A stretch of DNA of 64,000 nt from a candidate division WWE3 bacterium RIFOXYC1_FULL_40_10 (GTDB lineage: Bacteria > Patescibacteriota > WWE3 > UBA101185 > UBA10185), in assembly GCA_001773215.1 (NCBI GenBank), contig MEWB01000001.1:614099-678098 (forward strand), read 5' to 3'. The translations under genes were made by a program, and so were the position numbers. Shown here one piece after another: positions 5,577 through 58,898 of this stretch (its first letter is position 1; every line of letters begins with the position of its first letter). The notes beneath the pieces were generated by a model. It was not told where the DNA came from. It was given only the letters and a program-made list of their open reading frames with translations, and searched no databases.

Positions 5577-5736
5577 AAATACCTTTCATAGTAAGTATAT
5601 ACTTTTCGGGTATAAAAAATCCCCGACTTGTTTTCGTCAGGGCCTCACCGGCCTGCCATTTCTTCCCTTTTCGTCGCATTTTGGTTATAATACGTGCAAT
5701 TATTACCAAAAGCCTACCGAAAGTAAAGGAGATCAT

Positions 5737-6237
5737 ATGTATCAAACCTCGATTTTGGAACGTGAGCCTTATACGGCTCTGGTAGAAGTGATACCAAATT
5801 TAGGAGCTCATTTAGCTCATATCGACCTATCCGTCTTGCTCATTGAAATTGCCAAAAAGCCTTATCTCAAGCTTCAGGCTAAAATGAGCTTTAGTGATCC
5901 TAAGCATGGACCGCCTGAATACCACTCGTATATCCTTAAGCTTGAAGATCTTGAACTGGCCTGGCAGGCAACGGAAATGTTCAGACGAATTTTTGTGTTG
6001 CCCCACGGAGCTATTCAAGACATCAACGATCCTATCGAATGCCAGAACCCCTTCTTGGAGTGCGTTATAATGCTTTCCGAACCTCTCTTCATGAGAATCC
6101 ATGTTGCGTGTATTTTAGCTAGGAGGTTTCCGGGAGGCTTCTTGGGGGTATTAAATTCGAGAAAAGAAATTATGGATAGGCATCCAAACCTTAACTTTGC
6201 AAAACAAAGATTAAAAGAACTTGAAGTTGGCGCCTAA
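5737..6237 (+). CDS. Hypothetical protein (166 aa)
   Basis: In-frame ATG (MYQTSILEREPY...) preceded by AAAGGAGAT, so I prefer this start to the track's 5467 start that overlaps serS. Followed by an intrinsic terminator. GC is slightly elevated. Confidence 0.45.
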   Translation: MYQTSILEREPYTALVEVIPNLGAHLAHIDLSVLLIEIAKKPYLKLQAKMSFSDPKHGPPEYHSYILKLEDLELAWQATEMFRRIFVLPHGAIQDINDPIECQNPFLECVIMLSEPLFMRIHVACILARRFPGGFLGVLNSRKEIMDRHPNLNFAKQRLKELEVGA

Positions 6238-6247
6238 CTGTAATAGA

Positions 6248-6279
6248 CCGTGGGATTTTACAAACCCACGGTTTTTTTA
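6248..6279 (+). terminator. Rho-independent terminator (CCGTGGG...CCCACGG + T7)
   Basis: 7-bp GC stem followed by TTTTTTT directly after the 5737..6237 ORF. Confidence 0.6.
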
Positions 6280-6405
6280 TGTAAGCCTTGCAAATACAAT
6301 AAAGGATGATATTATTGCAACGATAACTGGTTGACACAAACCAAGTTTTTTGTTCTTATTGACCAACAAAAGTTGATTTGTTACAATCAACCGCGTTCTT
6401 TGTTG

Positions 6406-6621
6406 ATGCAAAATAAACAGGTAATAAATAAAGACGGAAAAATATTAGAAGCCTTAATGGGAGGGATGTTTAGGATAGAGCTCGACGACAGCAGTGTAGT
6501 CATAGCCTCAATATCCGGAAAGATGAGAAAGTCTCGTATCAGAGTTCTCCCTGGAGATAGAGTGAGAATGGAATTTTCACCTCACGACCTTTCTCGCGGC
6601 AGAATAGTTTATAGACTTTAA
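6406..6621 (+). CDS. infA: Translation initiation factor IF-1
   Basis: MQNKQVINKDGKILEALMGGMFRIELDDSSVVIASISGKMRKSRIRVLPGDRVRMEFSPHDLSRGRIVYR, an S1-like IF-1. The start is placed at the internal ATG. Confidence 0.85.
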   Translation: MQNKQVINKDGKILEALMGGMFRIELDDSSVVIASISGKMRKSRIRVLPGDRVRMEFSPHDLSRGRIVYRL

Positions 6622-6645
6622 TATTTTTCAAAATATAAAAAAGTA

Positions 6646-6762
6646 ATGAAAGTTAGATCTTCGGTAAAGACAATTTGCAGAGAATGCAAAGTTATAAGAA
6701 GAAAAGGCGTTGTTAGGGTGATTTGCAAGCGAAATCCCAAGCACAAGCAACGTCAAGGATAA
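6646..6762 (+). CDS. rpmJ: 50S ribosomal protein L36
   Basis: Translating the gap by hand gives [38 protein letters not shown] (38 aa, zinc-ribbon CxxC...C...H pattern). It is below the ORF-track size cutoff. Confidence 0.85.
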
Positions 6763-6763
6763 T

Positions 6764-11467: not shown

Positions 11468-11995
11468 TTGGCAGGCGCTTCCTGGGCGGCTTTTGCCGAC
11501 AAAGGCGAGGTATTAGGAAGTACATTTAGCGTGGGATCAGCAAACATCCGGCTACTACAGGATCTTGCAGGGGGAATAGATCCTTCTAACTTAGTAGAAC
11601 AGTTAACCGGACCAAGTTTCCAGAACATAAGTCCTAATTGGAATCAAAATTACTTAGTAAAACTGTACAACAACGGAACATCCCAAATGCAATTAACAAC
11701 CCACGCCAGGTATGTAACGACAAACGATCCTCAGGATTTGAGAACCTTAATATACGTGGAACCTTTTAAGTGGAATGATGCTAATGCCAATGGAGTTTTA
11801 GACACCGGAGAAGAAGGAACCAGCCTAGGAAGAAAAACCTTGGTTAAATGGAGTACAGAAGGATACGATTTGGGAACTCTGGCAACTGGTCAAATTCAAG
11901 GAGTATTACTCAAGTTCTCCACAGATGCTGTTAGTGACTCAAAACAGGGAGCAACGGCAATTATTGACTTCGTTTTCGATTCAATAGGTATCTAA
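11468..11995 (+). CDS. Secreted protein with SipW-cognate (TasA/camelysin-like) N-terminal region; true start probably upstream
   Basis: Track ORF starts at TTG. The upstream in-frame sequence encodes a signal peptide KKIIASAALIITILGLAGASWA|AFADKGEVLGSTFSVGSANIRL, resembling the TasA FSDKEVSNNTFAAGTLDL motif. AGGAGGTGA RBS at 11381..11389. No in-frame ATG, so the start may be non-canonical, near 11396. Confidence 0.45.
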   Translation: MAGASWAAFADKGEVLGSTFSVGSANIRLLQDLAGGIDPSNLVEQLTGPSFQNISPNWNQNYLVKLYNNGTSQMQLTTHARYVTTNDPQDLRTLIYVEPFKWNDANANGVLDTGEEGTSLGRKTLVKWSTEGYDLGTLATGQIQGVLLKFSTDAVSDSKQGATAIIDFVFDSIGI

Positions 11996-25794: not shown

Positions 25795-25906
25795 ATTTAT
25801 TTTTCTAACTTTTGGTGATTTTAAAAGGGTTTAGGGATAAAATGCTGAGCACTGTTAAAATGCACAATACCTTATCACTAACCTTTCCAAATCCCAAAGA
25901 TTTAAA

Positions 25907-26185
25907 TTATTTACTTAGTTCTACCTTCTCCAATAGAGAAGTATACCTCTTTTCATCTTTCTTTTTTAGATATGCCAACAGTCTTCGTCTCTTATTAACC
26001 ATTTGAAGTAATCCTCTTCTGGAGTGATTATCTTTTTTATGGTCTTTTAAATGAGCGGATAATCTGTTGATCTTCTCGCTTAACAGTGCAACCTGCACTT
26101 CCGGAGACCCGGTATCGGCTTCATGCAATCTGTTACCTTTTATTATCTTTTGCTTTTTTTCTTGCTGTAATGGCATATACGACAA
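25907..26185 (-). CDS. rpsO: 30S ribosomal protein S15
   Basis: ...[36 protein letters not shown]... is the S15 signature; canonical position upstream of pnp. Confidence 0.9.
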
Positions 26186-26217
26186 TGTATGTTAGCAAAC
26201 ATTATCAATAAAATCAA

Positions 26218-26835
26218 CTACATAGTTTTATTCACTATTCCCTTTAGCAAGGCCTTAGCCGCGATTTCGTCGGCTTTTAATCCAAGTTTATAAGCGTTAT
26301 TTAAAACAAACAAACTAAGTACACTTGTTTCGGCTCCGGTGATATTAAAAGTCCCATAATTAGTGTTATCTATTGAGTTGTCAAAATTTACTAGCTTCAC
26401 ATTCTTTAATACGTCTTGAAATTTACCTAATTTCTCCTGAGTAGGCACACCTACAGATAGTACTAAATCAAAATCAGATCCTTTAATAATTGGTATTACC
26501 TTTGAAATGTCGAAATCTTTGTTTATCGGGCTAACACTTAGGTATAAAGTTTGGTCTTCGGTGTAATAATGAACTTTCGACGCCTGAGTTCCGGAATAAT
26601 CAATTGAAACAAGTAGTTCTCTCTGTTGTAGCTCTTTTTGTACTTCTGTCTCACCAATAATATCTTTACAATCCTCAGGTATCTCGCCATCAAATAAGAA
26701 GGTACAATTTTTTTGCTTTGCCATAACCATCCTCATTACTCCAACACCGGCACAAAACTTGTCTATAGAGGAATCAGCAGGAATGACCACTGCTATATTA
26801 TTTGAATTTACGATAAGATCTTTAATTTCAGCCAT
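26218..26835 (-). CDS. DHH-family-like protein with degenerate catalytic motifs (NrnA-like fold?)
   Basis: NIAVVIPADSSIDKFCAGVGVMRMV aligns to the DHH N-terminal motif (PDGDAIGS replaced by PADSSIDK); VSIDYSG sits in place of DHH. It occupies the infB-(rbfA/nrnA)-rpsO position. Start set at MAEIK. Confidence 0.35.
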   Translation of the reverse strand: MAEIKDLIVNSNNIAVVIPADSSIDKFCAGVGVMRMVMAKQKNCTFLFDGEIPEDCKDIIGETEVQKELQQRELLVSIDYSGTQASKVHYYTEDQTLYLSVSPINKDFDISKVIPIIKGSDFDLVLSVGVPTQEKLGKFQDVLKNVKLVNFDNSIDNTNYGTFNITGAETSVLSLFVLNNAYKLGLKADEIAAKALLKGIVNKTM

Positions 26836-26839
26836 ACTA

Positions 26840-41464: not shown

Positions 41465-42757
41465 TTAGGGGTTAATTCTCTTAACATCGCGGGGCAATAA
41501 CGTGGCTTCTTTTACACTAGGCAAATCCAGCATCTGCATAATTATTCGGCCCGGCCCAATTCCCACACCACCATGAGGAGGACACCCGTATTTAAAAAAG
41601 TCCATATAGCCCCTTAGAGATTCCACATCCATCCCTTTCTCTTTAGCTTGCTTTTCCAATACCTCGTAGCGATGCTCTCTTTGGGCACCGGTTACGATTT
41701 CTAAACCCTTATATATCAAATCAAAGCCCTTGGTAATATCAGGTTGATCGGGATAACGCATATGATAAAAGGCTCTTCCGTTCGCCGGATAATCGATTAG
41801 AAAAACAAAATCGCTTCCCGTTTGCTCTTTGATCAATCTTCCAAGCTCCCTTTCTTCCTCAGGTGATACATCATAATCTTTTTCTCCTGAAATACCTTTT
41901 GCTCTTAACAATTCCTTGGCTTCTTTCATGGTTACTCTTGGAAATGGCCTTTTTGGTATTTCGAGTTCGGGCAACACAGTTTTGTTAACTTGTTCAAATC
42001 CTGATATCAAAAATTTCTCCAGTTCATCCATTACATCATGATGTGACTCAATATAAGACAGCTCAAAATCCCAGCCTGTAAACTCAGTCATATGCCGGGT
42101 TGTATACGAAGGTTCAGCCCTAAAGATAGGACCGGTAATAAACACCTTCTCAAATCCGGCAGCCATCGCCATTTGCTTATAAAATTGCGGGCTTTGGGCC
42201 AAATAGGCTTTTCTGTCAAAATAGTTCACCTCAAATACTTCCGCCCCGGACTCACTTGGAACTCCCATAAATGATGGTGCATAGACTTGAATGAAGTTAT
42301 TCTCTTCAGTGTATTTTCTTACACCTTTTTCGAGTTCAGTCCAAACTTTGAAGATATTTATTCTTTCATCTTTTCGTAAATCAATCCATCTGTAGTCGAA
42401 TCTCTTGGGAGCATCAGTTTCCTCTCCGCCTTTTTCGAAAACTACCGGTATGGGAAGCTCCGGGGAGGCTAGTGATAACACCATTATTTCCTCTGCTTCA
42501 ATCTCGAAGCCGTTGGGTGCCTGTTTCTCTTCTTTTGCCAAACCTGTGATACATACAACCGATTCAAGTGTCAAAGTTTTGCACGTATCAAAAGCTTCGG
42601 TGTGTGACTTTAGTACAACTACTTGTGCCCTTCCTGTAACATCGCGAATTATTAAAAACGCTATCGAACCTTGCTGCCGAATGGTTTCGACAAATCCTTT
42701 GATTGTAATTTTTTCACCTATTTTTTGCTTTATTGATTTTATATGAGTTCTTTCCAT
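41465..42757 (-). CDS. aspS: Aspartyl-tRNA synthetase, archaeal/eukaryotic type (class IIb); AsnRS not fully excluded
   Basis: N-terminal OB fold, FRAE..S.T.RH..EF, QSPQ, C-terminal GGxGxG.R....L...I.E..L.PR. The C-terminus resembles archaeal AspRS. Start set at MERTHIK after AAGGAAAG. Confidence 0.75.
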   Translation of the reverse strand: MERTHIKSIKQKIGEKITIKGFVETIRQQGSIAFLIIRDVTGRAQVVVLKSHTEAFDTCKTLTLESVVCITGLAKEEKQAPNGFEIEAEEIMVLSLASPELPIPVVFEKGGEETDAPKRFDYRWIDLRKDERINIFKVWTELEKGVRKYTEENNFIQVYAPSFMGVPSESGAEVFEVNYFDRKAYLAQSPQFYKQMAMAAGFEKVFITGPIFRAEPSYTTRHMTEFTGWDFELSYIESHHDVMDELEKFLISGFEQVNKTVLPELEIPKRPFPRVTMKEAKELLRAKGISGEKDYDVSPEEERELGRLIKEQTGSDFVFLIDYPANGRAFYHMRYPDQPDITKGFDLIYKGLEIVTGAQREHRYEVLEKQAKEKGMDVESLRGYMDFFKYGCPPHGGVGIGPGRIIMQMLDLPSVKEATLLPRDVKRINP

Positions 42758-42949
42758 ACTTTCCTTATAAACAGAAAAACCTCTACTAAACAGAGGTTCC
42801 GATATTACGGAAGGTGCCAACCTTCATAATGCTTATTTACAGCTGTAACGGGCATTCCCGGCTCGCCATTTCCTGCGAACAGCTTGGCGGTTGTCACTTT
42901 TCCGCCTCAACGCTTTTTATAACTAACAAATGTATTCTATATTTTACGG

Positions 42950-43363
42950 GAAAAAAAGCAAGCCCCGCAAATCTTTTTAGAATCTGCGGGGCGTAATAGT
43001 TTGCGGCTGGCGGATACGAACCTCTGTTCGATGTACCATAAAATCCGCCAGCCACTATTTAGTGGGGGTTCGAGTGGAGTCTACCGATAAGTATATTACA
43101 GTATTTCTCCAACCCTGAAGCCCACGGCGGTTGAGTGCATGCCGTCAGATCTGCAGTATCTGTTTTCGGCTTGAACGCAGGTCTCGTGGTCTACGTATCC
43201 TAAAGCTTTTCCACTTACCAGCTTTAGCGATAGGCGACTTGTTTCGCCCTTACCACAAGTACACTGCGCAGAAGGGGGTGCACTCAACGTAAAACGACCG
43301 ATCCATGGCGTGGGAAATCTCGCCGATTTACACCATAAAAAAGACGCCACTTCACGGGTCGAT
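42950..43363 (-). ncRNA. Candidate structured ncRNA 2 (about 410 nt), class unknown
   Basis: GC-rich (about 52-55%), ORF-poor. Transcribed from a perfect TTGACA-17-TATAAT promoter at 43370..43398. Ends in two consecutive hairpins: an 11-bp perfect stem GGCTGGCGGAT/ATCCGCCAGCC, then GCCCCGCA-loop-TGCGGGGC followed by TTGCTTTTTTT, about 190 nt upstream of aspS. Confidence 0.5.
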
Positions 43364-43369
43364 GCATGA

Positions 43370-43398
43370 ATTATAGACTAATTTATGGAATTTGTCAA
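43370..43398 (-). promoter_or_regulatory. Consensus sigma70 promoter (minus strand): TTGACA - 17 nt - TATAAT
   Basis: Reverse complement of 43393..43398 is TTGACA; of 43370..43375 is TATAAT; spacer is exactly 17 nt. Confidence 0.65.
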
Positions 43399-43429
43399 GC
43401 TATAAGTTATAAAGATCTGTAGGGGAATT

Positions 43430-43771
43430 AAAAACCGCCTCCGTGTTGTTATATTAACCAACGCGAAGGCGGACTAAGATCGATGGATGCAGGGAGCCGG
43501 ACAGCACGTCCTAAGACAGTTTCGCGAAGGCCGGTTTTATGCAACGGGCGTGGGGCGAGCTAGCCAGGTAATAGGTCATACGCCAGCTAACTGCCAAGCG
43601 GCGGGTGGCACAACATCACAATGTGCGGCCACATAGCCAAAGCCCGCGAAAGTTCCGGCCAAAGGAGCCCTGCCTCTACACTTGTATACAACCGGGGTGT
43701 CCCGTATGCTTGGTTTCCCAAGAGTGTAGAAGGGCCCACGCATTCGAAAAACTGCTACTCTCTGCATCCAT
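43430..43771 (-). ncRNA. Candidate structured ncRNA 1 (about 290-340 nt), class unknown
   Basis: GC-rich, ORF-poor. The predicted 5' end ATGGATGCAG (43762..43771) pairs perfectly with CTGCATCCAT (43483..43492), a P1-like terminal helix. Internal GNRA-capped hairpins (CTTGG-GAAA-CCAAG) and nested helices. Terminator CCGCCT...AGGCGG + T5 at 43430..43472. Confidence 0.5.
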
Positions 43772-43778
43772 GGCGCGA

Positions 43779-43807
43779 ATATTACGCTATTTTCGCAGAA
43801 ATGTCAA
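43779..43807 (-). promoter_or_regulatory. Near-consensus sigma70 promoter (minus strand): TTGACA - 17 nt - TAATAT, with a second upstream TTGACA
   Basis: Reverse complement of 43802..43807 is TTGACA; of 43779..43784 is TAATAT. Confidence 0.6.
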
Positions 43808-43809
43808 TA

Positions 43810-45438
43810 CTATGGGATCTTAATGTCAACCACAACCAAATCTACAGACCTTTTATTGTTGAATTCATTAATTTTTAGTGTAAAAGCCAGATCTACTATA
43901 TCCCCTAAGCACAAAGATTCACAAGCTTGTTTGCCATTGAAGTAAATCGCTTTATAGTCCTTTTTTCCTGCGGTTACAGTCAGTTTTACATGCTGAGCCG
44001 ACTTTCCGATAATATCAATATTCTTAACTTTAACCCCCGTTACGGCGAAAACAGGTTCTCTGTTGCCCACTCCAAAAGGTTGTAATTTCTCCAAGTTCTG
44101 CACCAATTCAATGTCAATTGCTTCCAAAGGCAGTTCAATATCTACTTCTACTGTTCTTACCAAATCGTCGTCCAAAATACATGAATTGGCAAGTTTGACC
44201 ACCTTTCCTTCCAGCTCGGTGATTTTATTTTTATTGATAGAAAACCCCGCCGCACCCGGATGACCCCCCAAGCTTTCAAACATATCCTCAAAGTTCCTCA
44301 AAAAGGCTATTATGTCCACGCCGGGTACCGATCTTACAGACCCTTTTGCCATTTCCTCGTTTATGCTCATAACAATAGAGGGGCGGTAATACTTTTGAGT
44401 AATTTTAGCAGCCACTAAACCGATAATACCTTCGTGGAAATCCTCATGGTAAGCAATCACCACTTTTGGCAAGTTTTTTAGATCAAACTGTCCCGCCAAC
44501 TCATACATTTGTAAAGTTTTATCCTGCCTATCAATGTTTATTTCGTGCAGTTTTTGTGCAATATCCTCTACCACCGAGGGATCCTCTTCGGTGAATAGTT
44601 TTACAGCCTCCACGGCATCAATTAATCTGCCCGTCGCATTAATTCTAGGCCCAATGACCCAACCCAATTCGTAGTTAGAAATCTTTTTCCCCTCATTTCC
44701 AGAGGTTTTTATTAATTGGGCAAGACCTAAAGGGGGCTCAGTATTTATTACCGAAAGGCCTGCTTTAACAATAGCTCTGTTAAAACCAAGCAGGGGCTGA
44801 ATATCTGTAACTGTGGCCAGGGCTGCTAGAGCTACTCCGGCTTTACTTTTTGAGCCTAGGCTCTTGCTTAAAATCCATGCTAGAGCTGCTCCAACTACGG
44901 AGTCGCTCCACACTATTTCGTCGGCATTTGGTAAATGTGCCGGTTTTTGATGATGATCAGTGATTATGATCTGCTGACCTATTTTTTTAGCGTAATCAAC
45001 TGCATCATTCGCTGTGATACCACCATCAACGGTAACAATTAATGCCCTTTTGCCGCTAACCAGCTTGAGTGCATCATCAATCGACAACTCTGTTAGTCCA
45101 TAACTGTGAACAAATCGATTGGGTATAAAGAAAAAAGTATTTTGGTAGTTGAGTTCCTTTTTTAAAGTATTAAACAATATGGCCGTAGCACATACCCCAT
45201 CTGCGTCGTAATCCCCATGGATTATTATAGGTGTCTCCTTCGCAATGGCGTCTTTTATAATTTTGGTTGCAGACTTCAAAGATTCCACAAACTCTTCAGG
45301 CAGTAACTTGAAAGACTCGTTGAAGGTAGGAGGATTTAGAAAAGCTTTTATATCTGTGATTCCGCGTTGTAACAGAATTTGCTCGGCTAAATCATTTGTT
45401 GGATTATAAACTCCGGAGATTACCCATTTTTGTGGCAT
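43810..45438 (-). CDS. recJ: Single-stranded-DNA-specific exonuclease RecJ
   Basis: DHH (HGDYDADG) and DHHA1 domains, 542 aa. Confidence 0.85.
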   Translation of the reverse strand: MPQKWVISGVYNPTNDLAEQILLQRGITDIKAFLNPPTFNESFKLLPEEFVESLKSATKIIKDAIAKETPIIIHGDYDADGVCATAILFNTLKKELNYQNTFFFIPNRFVHSYGLTELSIDDALKLVSGKRALIVTVDGGITANDAVDYAKKIGQQIIITDHHQKPAHLPNADEIVWSDSVVGAALAWILSKSLGSKSKAGVALAALATVTDIQPLLGFNRAIVKAGLSVINTEPPLGLAQLIKTSGNEGKKISNYELGWVIGPRINATGRLIDAVEAVKLFTEEDPSVVEDIAQKLHEINIDRQDKTLQMYELAGQFDLKNLPKVVIAYHEDFHEGIIGLVAAKITQKYYRPSIVMSINEEMAKGSVRSVPGVDIIAFLRNFEDMFESLGGHPGAAGFSINKNKITELEGKVVKLANSCILDDDLVRTVEVDIELPLEAIDIELVQNLEKLQPFGVGNREPVFAVTGVKVKNIDIIGKSAQHVKLTVTAGKKDYKAIYFNGKQACESLCLGDIVDLAFTLKINEFNNKRSVDLVVVDIKIP

Positions 45439-58561: not shown

Positions 58562-58634
58562 TTGTTAATTTTACATCATATTGCGCGAATTAGTAATTTA
58601 AGAGTTTTTGATGATAAAATACTGGGGATTACTT

Positions 58635-58824
58635 TGGGGGATCGTCTAAGTGGGCGCTTGCGCTGCCATTAGACAACCAGCTAATGATATCGTTATAGTT
58701 TAATTGTTCTGATAACTGTATTTCTTTATTGGGGGATCGTCTAAGCGGGCGCTTGCGCTGCCATTAGACAACCAGCTAATGATATCGTTATAGTTTAATT
58801 GTTCTGATAACTGTATTTCTTTAT
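58635..58824 (+). repeat. Two tandem 95-bp direct repeats, each beginning with the first 15 nt of the downstream tRNA-Gln (TGGGGGATCGTCTAA), then a strong hairpin and an AT-rich tail
   Basis: Units 58635..58729 and 58730..58824 differ by one SNP (AAGTGGG vs AAGCGGG). The hairpin GTCTAAgTGGGCGCttGCGCtgCCATTAGAC is seen directly. Confidence 0.8.
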
Positions 58825-58898
58825 TGGGGGATCGTCTAATGGTAGGACACTGCACTCTGGATGCAGGAATTGGGGTTCGACTCCCTGTCCCCCAGCCA
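58825..58898 (+). tRNA. tRNA-Gln (anticodon CUG)
   Basis: Cloverleaf: acceptor TGGGGGA/TCCCCCA, D-stem GTCT/GGAC, anticodon stem CTGCA/TGCAG with loop CTCTGGA, T-stem TTGGGG.../...CCCTG region with GGTTCGACTCC, discriminator G, encoded CCA. The 3' end CCCCCAGCCA is typical of tRNA-Gln. Confidence 0.8.

Follow-up and report, generated by a model that had tools for sequence, protein, structure and literature searches.

In the 64-kb stretch of candidate division WWE3 bacterium RIFOXYC1_FULL_40_10 analysed here (contig MEWB01000001.1; hereafter the window, numbered from its first letter), recJ (43810–45438) and aspS (41465–42757) follow one another on the minus strand, amid housekeeping genes, and are separated by 1052 nt. 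The last ~190 nt of this gap form a separate leader of aspS. The remainder is our subject: an island (42950–43810, minus strand) made up of two back-to-back units, each consisting of a sigma-70-type promoter, a G+C-rich body and an intrinsic terminator. The size of the gap follows from the start of aspS, which gene callers on other assemblies place at ATG 42757 (430 aa), a codon preceded by AAGGAAAG. The start assumed in a sequence-only reading of the window, that of a mechanically derived open reading frame (ORF) beginning at TTG 42820, was corrected accordingly, with the extra 63 nt assigned to the leader and its terminator. The same reading had proposed that the island holds two tandem genes for structured noncoding RNAs (ncRNAs) of unassigned class, and it is this proposal that we follow up.

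The island is the sole G+C-rich non-coding stretch in the window. Its mean G+C content is 49.7%, lower than the ~55% over 850 bp previously read from the sequence; only the core of unit 1 reaches 56.4%, with unit 2 at 49.9%, the spacer between the units at 28.8% and the window at 40.1%. At 56% and 50%, the units are comparable to the tRNAs of the window (50–60%), in a genome of 40% G+C. The longest ORFs of the island, 63 to 85 aa in length, have per-codon scores of 0.05, 0.02 and −0.04 when the codon usage of 27 genes of the window serves as the reference; overall, island ORFs range from −0.32 to 0.17, as compared to 0.345 ± 0.07 (minimum 0.19) for real genes. Protein searches with the two longest island ORFs gave no homologue of an 84-aa ORF among 5.8 billion proteins; in 1.84 billion cluster representatives, a 63-aa ORF matched itself and, as an artefact, a repeat protein, but nothing else. 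The suspicion that these ORFs are short and probably spurious is thus borne out, and when a degraded protein-coding remnant was looked for, neither a trace of a coding frame nor a homologue turned up.

Both promoters that had been noticed by eye are present on the minus strand. That of unit 2 (43370..43398), TTGACA-17-TATAAT, lies within the A+T-rich spacer, matches the consensus at 12 of 12 positions and predicts a start at about A43363. It is the only match of at least 11/12 in the 64 kb, where mononucleotide shuffles average 2.9. Arithmetic at the base composition of the window yields ~0.03 exact occurrences of TTGACA-N17-TATAAT per 64 kb, a chance expectation that replaces the 0.01 given before. 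The promoter of unit 1 (43779..43807, minus strand; TTGACA-17-TAATAT, 10/12) begins with a −35 box 3 nt past the recJ stop codon and predicts transcription from A43771. A 10/12 match is not rare by itself; what supports this promoter is its position, as the terminal helix described below begins at the predicted start.

The two proposed intrinsic terminators were likewise recovered on the minus strand, by a terminator scan and by base-pair probabilities. Unit 1 ends in an interrupted 13-bp stem, CCGCCUUCG.GUUG/CAAC.CGGAGGCGG, followed by UUUUU (43430..43472; helix probability 0.96–1.0), which is missing from a simple scan because its loop exceeds 8 nt. In unit 2 (42950..42992), GCCCCGCAGAU pairs with AUUUGCGGGGC through 12 pairs, 7 of them G-C (probability 0.96), ahead of UUGCUUUUUUU; the hairpin itself spans 42992..42962 and is followed by TTGCTTTTTTT.

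The RNA core of unit 1 (43483..43771, minus strand) measures 289 nt. Taken from 43425 to 43775, the unit folds at −150.6 kcal/mol (z = −5.55), and none of 100 dinucleotide shuffles is as stable. A P1-like terminal helix had been proposed for it, and indeed a 14-nt inverted repeat, 93% complementary, joins 43758–43771 to 43483–43496. In the predicted fold, this pairs the first transcribed bases with the last bases before the terminator and closes a two-domain body. The outer stem stacks 10 + 4 + 8 + 4 bp and bears a small side hairpin (43499–43511). Domain A (43665–43737) is a three-way junction with a GAAA-capped hairpin, whereas domain B (43529–43660) is closed by GGCCGG/CCGGCC and GCGGGC/GCCCGU and contains two long hairpins; helix probabilities amount to 0.8–1.0. 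Nested helices, some capped by GAAA tetraloops, had been described for the island: the helices are there, but in the minimum free energy structures the cap is seen on one hairpin only, CUUGG-GAAA-CCAAG in unit 1.

Unit 2, ~410 nt including its terminator and 50% G+C, is the more stable of the two when folded from 42950 to 43366 (−163.5 kcal/mol, z = −7.03; 0/100 dinucleotide shuffles as stable), so that both units lie far beyond their shuffled counterparts. Its body (43363..42993 in the direction of transcription, minus strand) is predicted to form four consecutive domains. The first is a 5′ hairpin (~43293–43355) that is less well defined, with probabilities of 0.5–0.9; the second (43130–43288) is closed by a 10-bp perfect helix, GUUGAGUGCA/UGCACUCAAC; the third (43062–43125) is an irregular long hairpin; and the fourth (43003–43055) is a very stable 12-bp hairpin with a 27-nt loop comprising UUUA-UGGUACA-U and a small CGAAC-AGAG-GUUCG helix. 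An 11-bp perfect hairpin seen beforehand in this unit was found again, with arms at 43005–43015 and 43043–43053. Apart from the 5′ hairpin, helix probabilities in unit 2 are mostly 0.9–1.0, and across both units most predicted helices exceed 0.9. The sense strand of unit 2 folds better than its complement (z of −5.5 on the minus versus −3.5 on the plus strand). Two independent assemblies of the same species have scaffold-gap runs of N in the 3′ part of this unit, at or beside the 12-bp hairpin (L004 ~6394–6406 and L007 ~5937–5964, corresponding to window ~43010–43081), while the other four read across identically; the runs may stem from trouble with assembly or coverage at the hairpin, or from local heterogeneity.

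With nhmmer, no sequence similarity was detected between unit 1 and unit 2, nor a paralogue of either in the window. The lack of a class assignment withstood a scan with Rfam, which gave no family match at gathering thresholds or at E ≤ 10. At gathering thresholds only three tRNAs were reported in the window, none of them on the island; at E ≤ 10 nothing meaningful appeared in the 1.5 kb around the island, nor with each unit alone (361–428 nt). As a positive control, E. coli rnpB scored 318.6 bits with the same tool. ARAGORN at default settings found no tRNA or tmRNA (transfer-messenger RNA) on the island, and thresholds of 60–70% produced only malformed permuted candidates.

Intron-containing tRNA genes were an attractive idea in the vicinity of aspS. 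In Patescibacteria, genes for tRNA-Asn and tRNA-Asp with group I introns at position 35/36 escape annotation (PMC13011429). When introns were allowed, ARAGORN reported nothing on the island at default and, at 90%, one candidate with a broken acceptor stem. Rfam Intron_gpI had no match at E ≤ 10 on either unit. Similarity to the Azoarcus intron was marginal (of 300 shuffles, 4 scored as high with unit 2 and 13 with unit 1), the Tetrahymena intron gave no signal in either unit, and the p values of these alignments, ~0.01 to 0.9, stand before correction for many comparisons. Together with the absence of tRNA exon halves, this led us to reject a group I intron or an intron-containing tRNA-Asp/Asn gene. 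An antisense regulator was discarded as well, since complementarity to the rest of the window stayed at chance level: the island shares 9 twelve-mers with it as against 6.3 expected, and neither repeats nor complementarity went beyond chance.

What, then, are these units? The interpretation that we favour, and that we hold to be somewhat likelier than an even bet, is that the island comprises two autonomous genes, each for a stable structured RNA that acts in trans, belongs to no described family and is, so far as can be judged, restricted to one species-level lineage of WWE3. Unit 1 would give rise to an RNA of ~290 nt plus terminator whose 5′ end pairs with its 3′ end around the two-domain body, and unit 2 to one of ~410 nt that runs through its four domains and on to the stable 12-bp hairpin and terminator. 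We infer that both are expressed, stable and functional. They would accumulate as abundant RNAs and act as RNA–protein scaffolds, as ligand- or tRNA-binding RNAs or as ribozymes, rather than as base-pairing regulators. Their terminators would also cut aspS off from transcription of recJ, which fits with aspS having its own T-box-like leader. Given that genomes of the candidate phyla radiation (CPR)/Patescibacteria are tiny and tightly packed, ~0.75 kb devoted to two strongly promoted, folded RNAs is unlikely to be idle.

Several observations weigh against this interpretation. The tests intrinsic to the sequence agree with two tandem structured ncRNA genes without a class, but the search for homologues, which could have demonstrated conservation, came back empty, and the case is therefore one of a single species and of sequence-intrinsic signals. 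RecJ is identical in at least 23 contigs (ENA, NCBI, JGI), and identity drops to 53% in the next closest RecJ proteins. The island itself is 99.9–100% identical across six assemblies of the same species from different samples; strain variation is therefore no substitute for covariation. Among relatives, we sampled 16 recJ-aspS junctions, two of which were cut off by contig ends, and nothing similar to unit 1 or unit 2 was present in any of the 14 readable ones; nhmmer with both units found nothing in ~1.3 Mb of retrieved loci. A RecJ-anchored scan of genome contigs yielded one relative, which lacks the island, and a RecJ-profile scan of metagenome contigs with generic patterns yielded 80 loci, only 3 of them WWE3-like and none with the island. 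Searches of phages and plasmids (blastn) and of viral contigs (peptide-pattern scans with the two longest spurious ORFs) retrieved nothing. Moreover, single-sequence fold predictions are not proof of function, and unit 1 folds about equally well on both strands, so that its sense has to be read from the promoter and terminator signals alone. The junction carries different cargo in different relatives, and the block could thus be recently acquired DNA. Lastly, an absent Rfam match counts for less here than usual, because Rfam missed the T-box-like leader of aspS described below and because, in about a quarter of complete CPR genomes, the RNase P RNAs score below Rfam thresholds (PMC8172020). 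It is for this reason that motif, topology and shuffle tests were added.

The leader in question is a candidate element at 42770..42914 on the minus strand, outside the two units and ~50 nt away from them, and is homologous to leaders in two of the relatives' loci (L091 12500–12692 and L094 11900–12073). From 5′ to 3′, it consists of a hairpin with loop AAAAGUGACAA, a core CCGGGAAUGCCCGUUACAGCUGUAAAUAAG that is common to all three leaders, a T-box-type element and an overlapping terminator (42800..42776). In all three, the hairpin loop contains GUGAC, complementary to GUCAC of the tRNA-Asp anticodon loop. The T-box-type element reads AGG-UUGGCACC-UUCCG...CGGAA-CCU in the window versus AGG-UGGUACC-GUCCA...UGGAC-CCU in L091 and L094; the bulge element is UGGC in the former and UGGU in the latter, both of which carry AGGUGGUACCG. 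A model built from the three leaders (R1) scores 100 bits on each, by construction, and has no other match in the window or the relatives' loci. Covariation among them is minimal, with one compensatory pair in an imperfect alignment. No such leader is seen in eleven other relatives, in which aspS either adjoins recJ, fused or nearly so, or is split from it by an unrelated insert. Judging from these shared elements, we consider the leader a candidate T-box-like riboswitch common to three WWE3 lineages. Rfam reports no T-box for any of the three at gathering thresholds and, at E ≤ 10, none on the window leader or on the 291-nt L094 leader, despite its exact AGGUGGUACCG.

Might the units themselves be early stages of this leader? 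They lie on the same strand directly upstream of it, and each ends in an intrinsic terminator as attenuators do, so one could read them as parts of a very long leader of aspS that act in cis as attenuator- or riboswitch-like stages, for instance degenerate tandem T-box elements, with read-through of the terminators feeding aspS. The leader's own promoter is weak-looking (TTGCTT-16-TAGAAT, below the criteria of the scan), and the promoter of unit 2 could drive aspS by read-through. In addition, the 3′ hairpin of unit 2 recalls a T-box antiterminator in its long lower helix, its UGGUAC 5′ bulge (within UUUA-UGGUACA-U), its small upper helix and its place upstream of the aspS leader. It differs, however, in that the 12-bp lower helix neither overlaps nor competes with the unit 2 terminator, and in lacking both a specifier element and the conserved core; model R1 does not exceed 5.5 bits anywhere inside the island even with filters off. 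Unit 2 as a second T-box was rejected on these grounds, and its membership in the aspS leader system is a lead, not a finding. Against a long leader in general speak the promoter that each unit has of its own and the fact that what comes after unit 1 is another promoter and not a gene. No switch is visible, as no obvious competing helix overlaps either terminator; 290–410 nt exceeds known single aptamers; and L091 and L094 possess the same leader without the units. We therefore rate this explanation as improbable.

The idea that one or both units represent an extremely divergent RNase P RNA, tmRNA, signal recognition particle (SRP) RNA or 6S RNA, missed by standard models in this CPR lineage, is conceivable precisely because Rfam is demonstrably insensitive here. 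In their sizes of ~290 and 410 nt, their strong promoters, the pairing of their ends and their enrichment in G+C, the units are like rnpB and ssrA, and RNase P RNA (RF00010, RF00011) in particular is alike in size, in its paired 5′/3′ terminal helix and in its strong stand-alone promoter. Unit 1 can moreover be drawn by hand in RNase P order, with an outer stem, a hairpin and a CCGG-containing long-range helix: P1 at 1–10/280–289, P2 at 17–24/249–256, P3 at 35–107 and a pairing of 112–118 with 271–277, the latter a GGCCGGA/UCCGGCU pseudoknot that resembles the P4 consensus GUCCGG/CCGGCU. That drawing competes, though, with nested helices of probability 0.99–1.0, and the flanks of the alternative GGCCGGA/UCCGGCU pairing are pyrimidine-rich or unrelated. 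No RNaseP_* model matched either unit at gathering thresholds or at E ≤ 10.

For the motif and alignment tests, E. coli rnpB (M1 RNA) and the RF00010 consensus served as references. Unit 1 has strings that resemble conserved regions (CR) I and V with 1–2 mismatches, GGAACUUUCGCG at 43656 (CR-I, GNAANNUCNGNG) and AUAAAACCGGCCUUC at 43540 (CR-V, ACNNAANNNGNCUUA), but they are not complementary in the P4 register and provide no bulged U; the universal J3/4 and J2/4 purines of the catalytic core are absent from this unit as well. In unit 2, GGUAAGGGCGAAA and CGGUAGACUCCACUCG...AAAUAG are reminiscent of conserved stretches of M1 RNA, but a third M1-like block is out of order and the look-alike blocks occur in different structural contexts. 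The best local alignments to M1 RNA and the RF00010 consensus are of chance quality, with 32 to 61 of 400–500 shuffles scoring as high. With P4 unpaired, core purines missing and alignment scores at shuffle level, RNase P RNA was rejected by motif and alignment, and the few short look-alike strings are, by these comparisons, chance resemblances.

The other universal RNAs fare no better. For tmRNA, the island offers no GGGG...ACCA acceptor, G3-U70 pair, T-arm or tag frame, and Rfam had no tmRNA match at E ≤ 10; unit 2 does have an acceptor-like stem, but with C3-G70 and only 27 nt inside it. The island lacks the GGAAGCAGC-type helix 8 motif of SRP RNA even when 2 mismatches are allowed, and no SRP family matched at E ≤ 10. 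Nor did 6S RNA, built as a rod of ~150–200 nt around a large central bubble, match at E ≤ 10, and both units are longer than it, with multi-branched folds rather than rods. The possibility, raised in the sequence-only reading, that the pair are divergent versions of these four RNAs thus finds no backing in motif and topology checks, and we deem it unlikely.

A similarly slim chance goes to the view that the block derives from foreign DNA, acquired recently or in decay, and has no function of its own, its promoter- and terminator-like signals being fortuitous or relics. The array into which it is inserted, secD-secF-recJ-aspS, is conserved, as part of the order DUF3048-x-secD-secF-recJ-aspS-dac-x-gltX-recA-recX-rny in the relatives' loci, and the junction between recJ and aspS has the appearance of a hot spot where small inserts collect. 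Nine of the 14 readable junctions are fused, with gaps of at most ~25 nt (L001, L009, L088, L090, L092, L093, L095, L096 and L098), and the gap amounts to 152 nt in L099 and 453 nt in L094. In L089, 605 nt accommodate a 123-aa ORF on the other strand, and the 1089 nt of L091 hold a promoter, then an A+T-rich, small RNA-like unit (~170 nt) that has a terminator, followed by a 161-aa ORF and the leader. As none of these junctions contains anything similar, the island is a lineage-specific insertion at a variable junction; the want of homologues, the variety of inserts and a G+C content that differs from the genome are all compatible with foreign DNA. What argues for function is a 12/12 promoter that is correctly placed in spite of its low chance expectation, a promoter–body–terminator arrangement that occurs twice in a row, folding far beyond shuffles and the lack of any degraded coding frame, in a tightly packed window and in a group whose genomes, at ~0.9 Mb, keep little junk. 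A mobile element was rejected, as no direct repeats flanking the island were found and no mobility genes were seen nearby.

The insert of L091 is noted here in its own right: at 11655–11845 of that locus, TTGACT-17-TATAAA precedes the A+T-rich unit, which ends in ACCUCCAUAAUCGGAGGU plus U8 and shows no sequence relationship to either unit of the island, and the 161-aa ORF after it has no Pfam match.

Finally, it is very improbable that the units serve as messages for small proteins, of 63 aa or, leaderless, of 31 aa from unit 1 and of 84 aa from unit 2, or that they are the intron-containing tRNA genes already dealt with. An AUG does lie at the predicted start of unit 1, and a gene caller did call the 63-aa ORF in one assembly. 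However, codon scores of 0.05 (63 aa), −0.11 (31 aa) and 0.02 (84 aa) fall short of the 0.19 or more of every real gene, and the ORFs come with neither a Shine-Dalgarno sequence nor homologues.

Two autonomous genes for stable structured RNAs thus continue to be our preferred interpretation, and it invites comparison with large ncRNAs of other bacteria. Orphan large ncRNAs have been discovered as G+C-rich intergenic regions in AT-rich genomes (PMC11109978, PMC8632094). The raiA motif, OLE, ROOL and GOLLD are, like units 1 and 2, long, G+C-enriched, ORF-free and intergenic, with their own promoter and terminator and a multi-domain predicted fold. In contrast to the units, which match none of them, each of these classes has an Rfam entry and is based on numerous representatives that show covariation; seen in just one species-level lineage, units 1 and 2 are candidates rather than established classes. 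With this in mind, we tentatively propose, as a possibility that we would not yet call probable, that they represent the first members of two new classes of large structured RNAs that act in trans and are specific to this lineage of Patescibacteria (WWE3), and not divergent universal RNAs. In the boldest version, unit 2 may be a tRNA-binding RNA, an idea prompted by its T-box-like UGGUAC bulge next to a candidate tRNA-Asp-sensing aspS leader, and unit 1 may be a ribozyme-like RNA whose core is closed and pseudoknotted in the manner of RNase P.

Elsewhere in the window, two further gaps of more than 1 kb have no ORF of at least 100 aa, and both are A+T-rich: 25795–26839 (34% G+C), between pnp and infB, which may be an unrecognised N-terminal extension of IF-2, and 5577–6763 (39% G+C), upstream of a plus-strand gene cluster. 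Directly upstream of tRNA-Gln, two tandem 95-nt repeats (58634–58839) are 99% identical and each opens with the first 16 nt of the tRNA (TTGGGGGATCGTCTAA), resulting in three copies of the tRNA 5′ end at 95-nt spacing; this could be a duplication scar or the remnant of an integration site.

RNA biology in the CPR is unusual already: its RNase P RNAs are divergent, introns occur in its tRNA and rRNA genes, and its ribosomes are reduced. Standard Rfam screening missed a T-box-like leader in the present lineage, and inventories of ncRNAs from CPR genomes are therefore probably incomplete. If our interpretation is true, units 1 and 2 would join the short list of large bacterial RNAs whose biochemistry has yet to be worked out.

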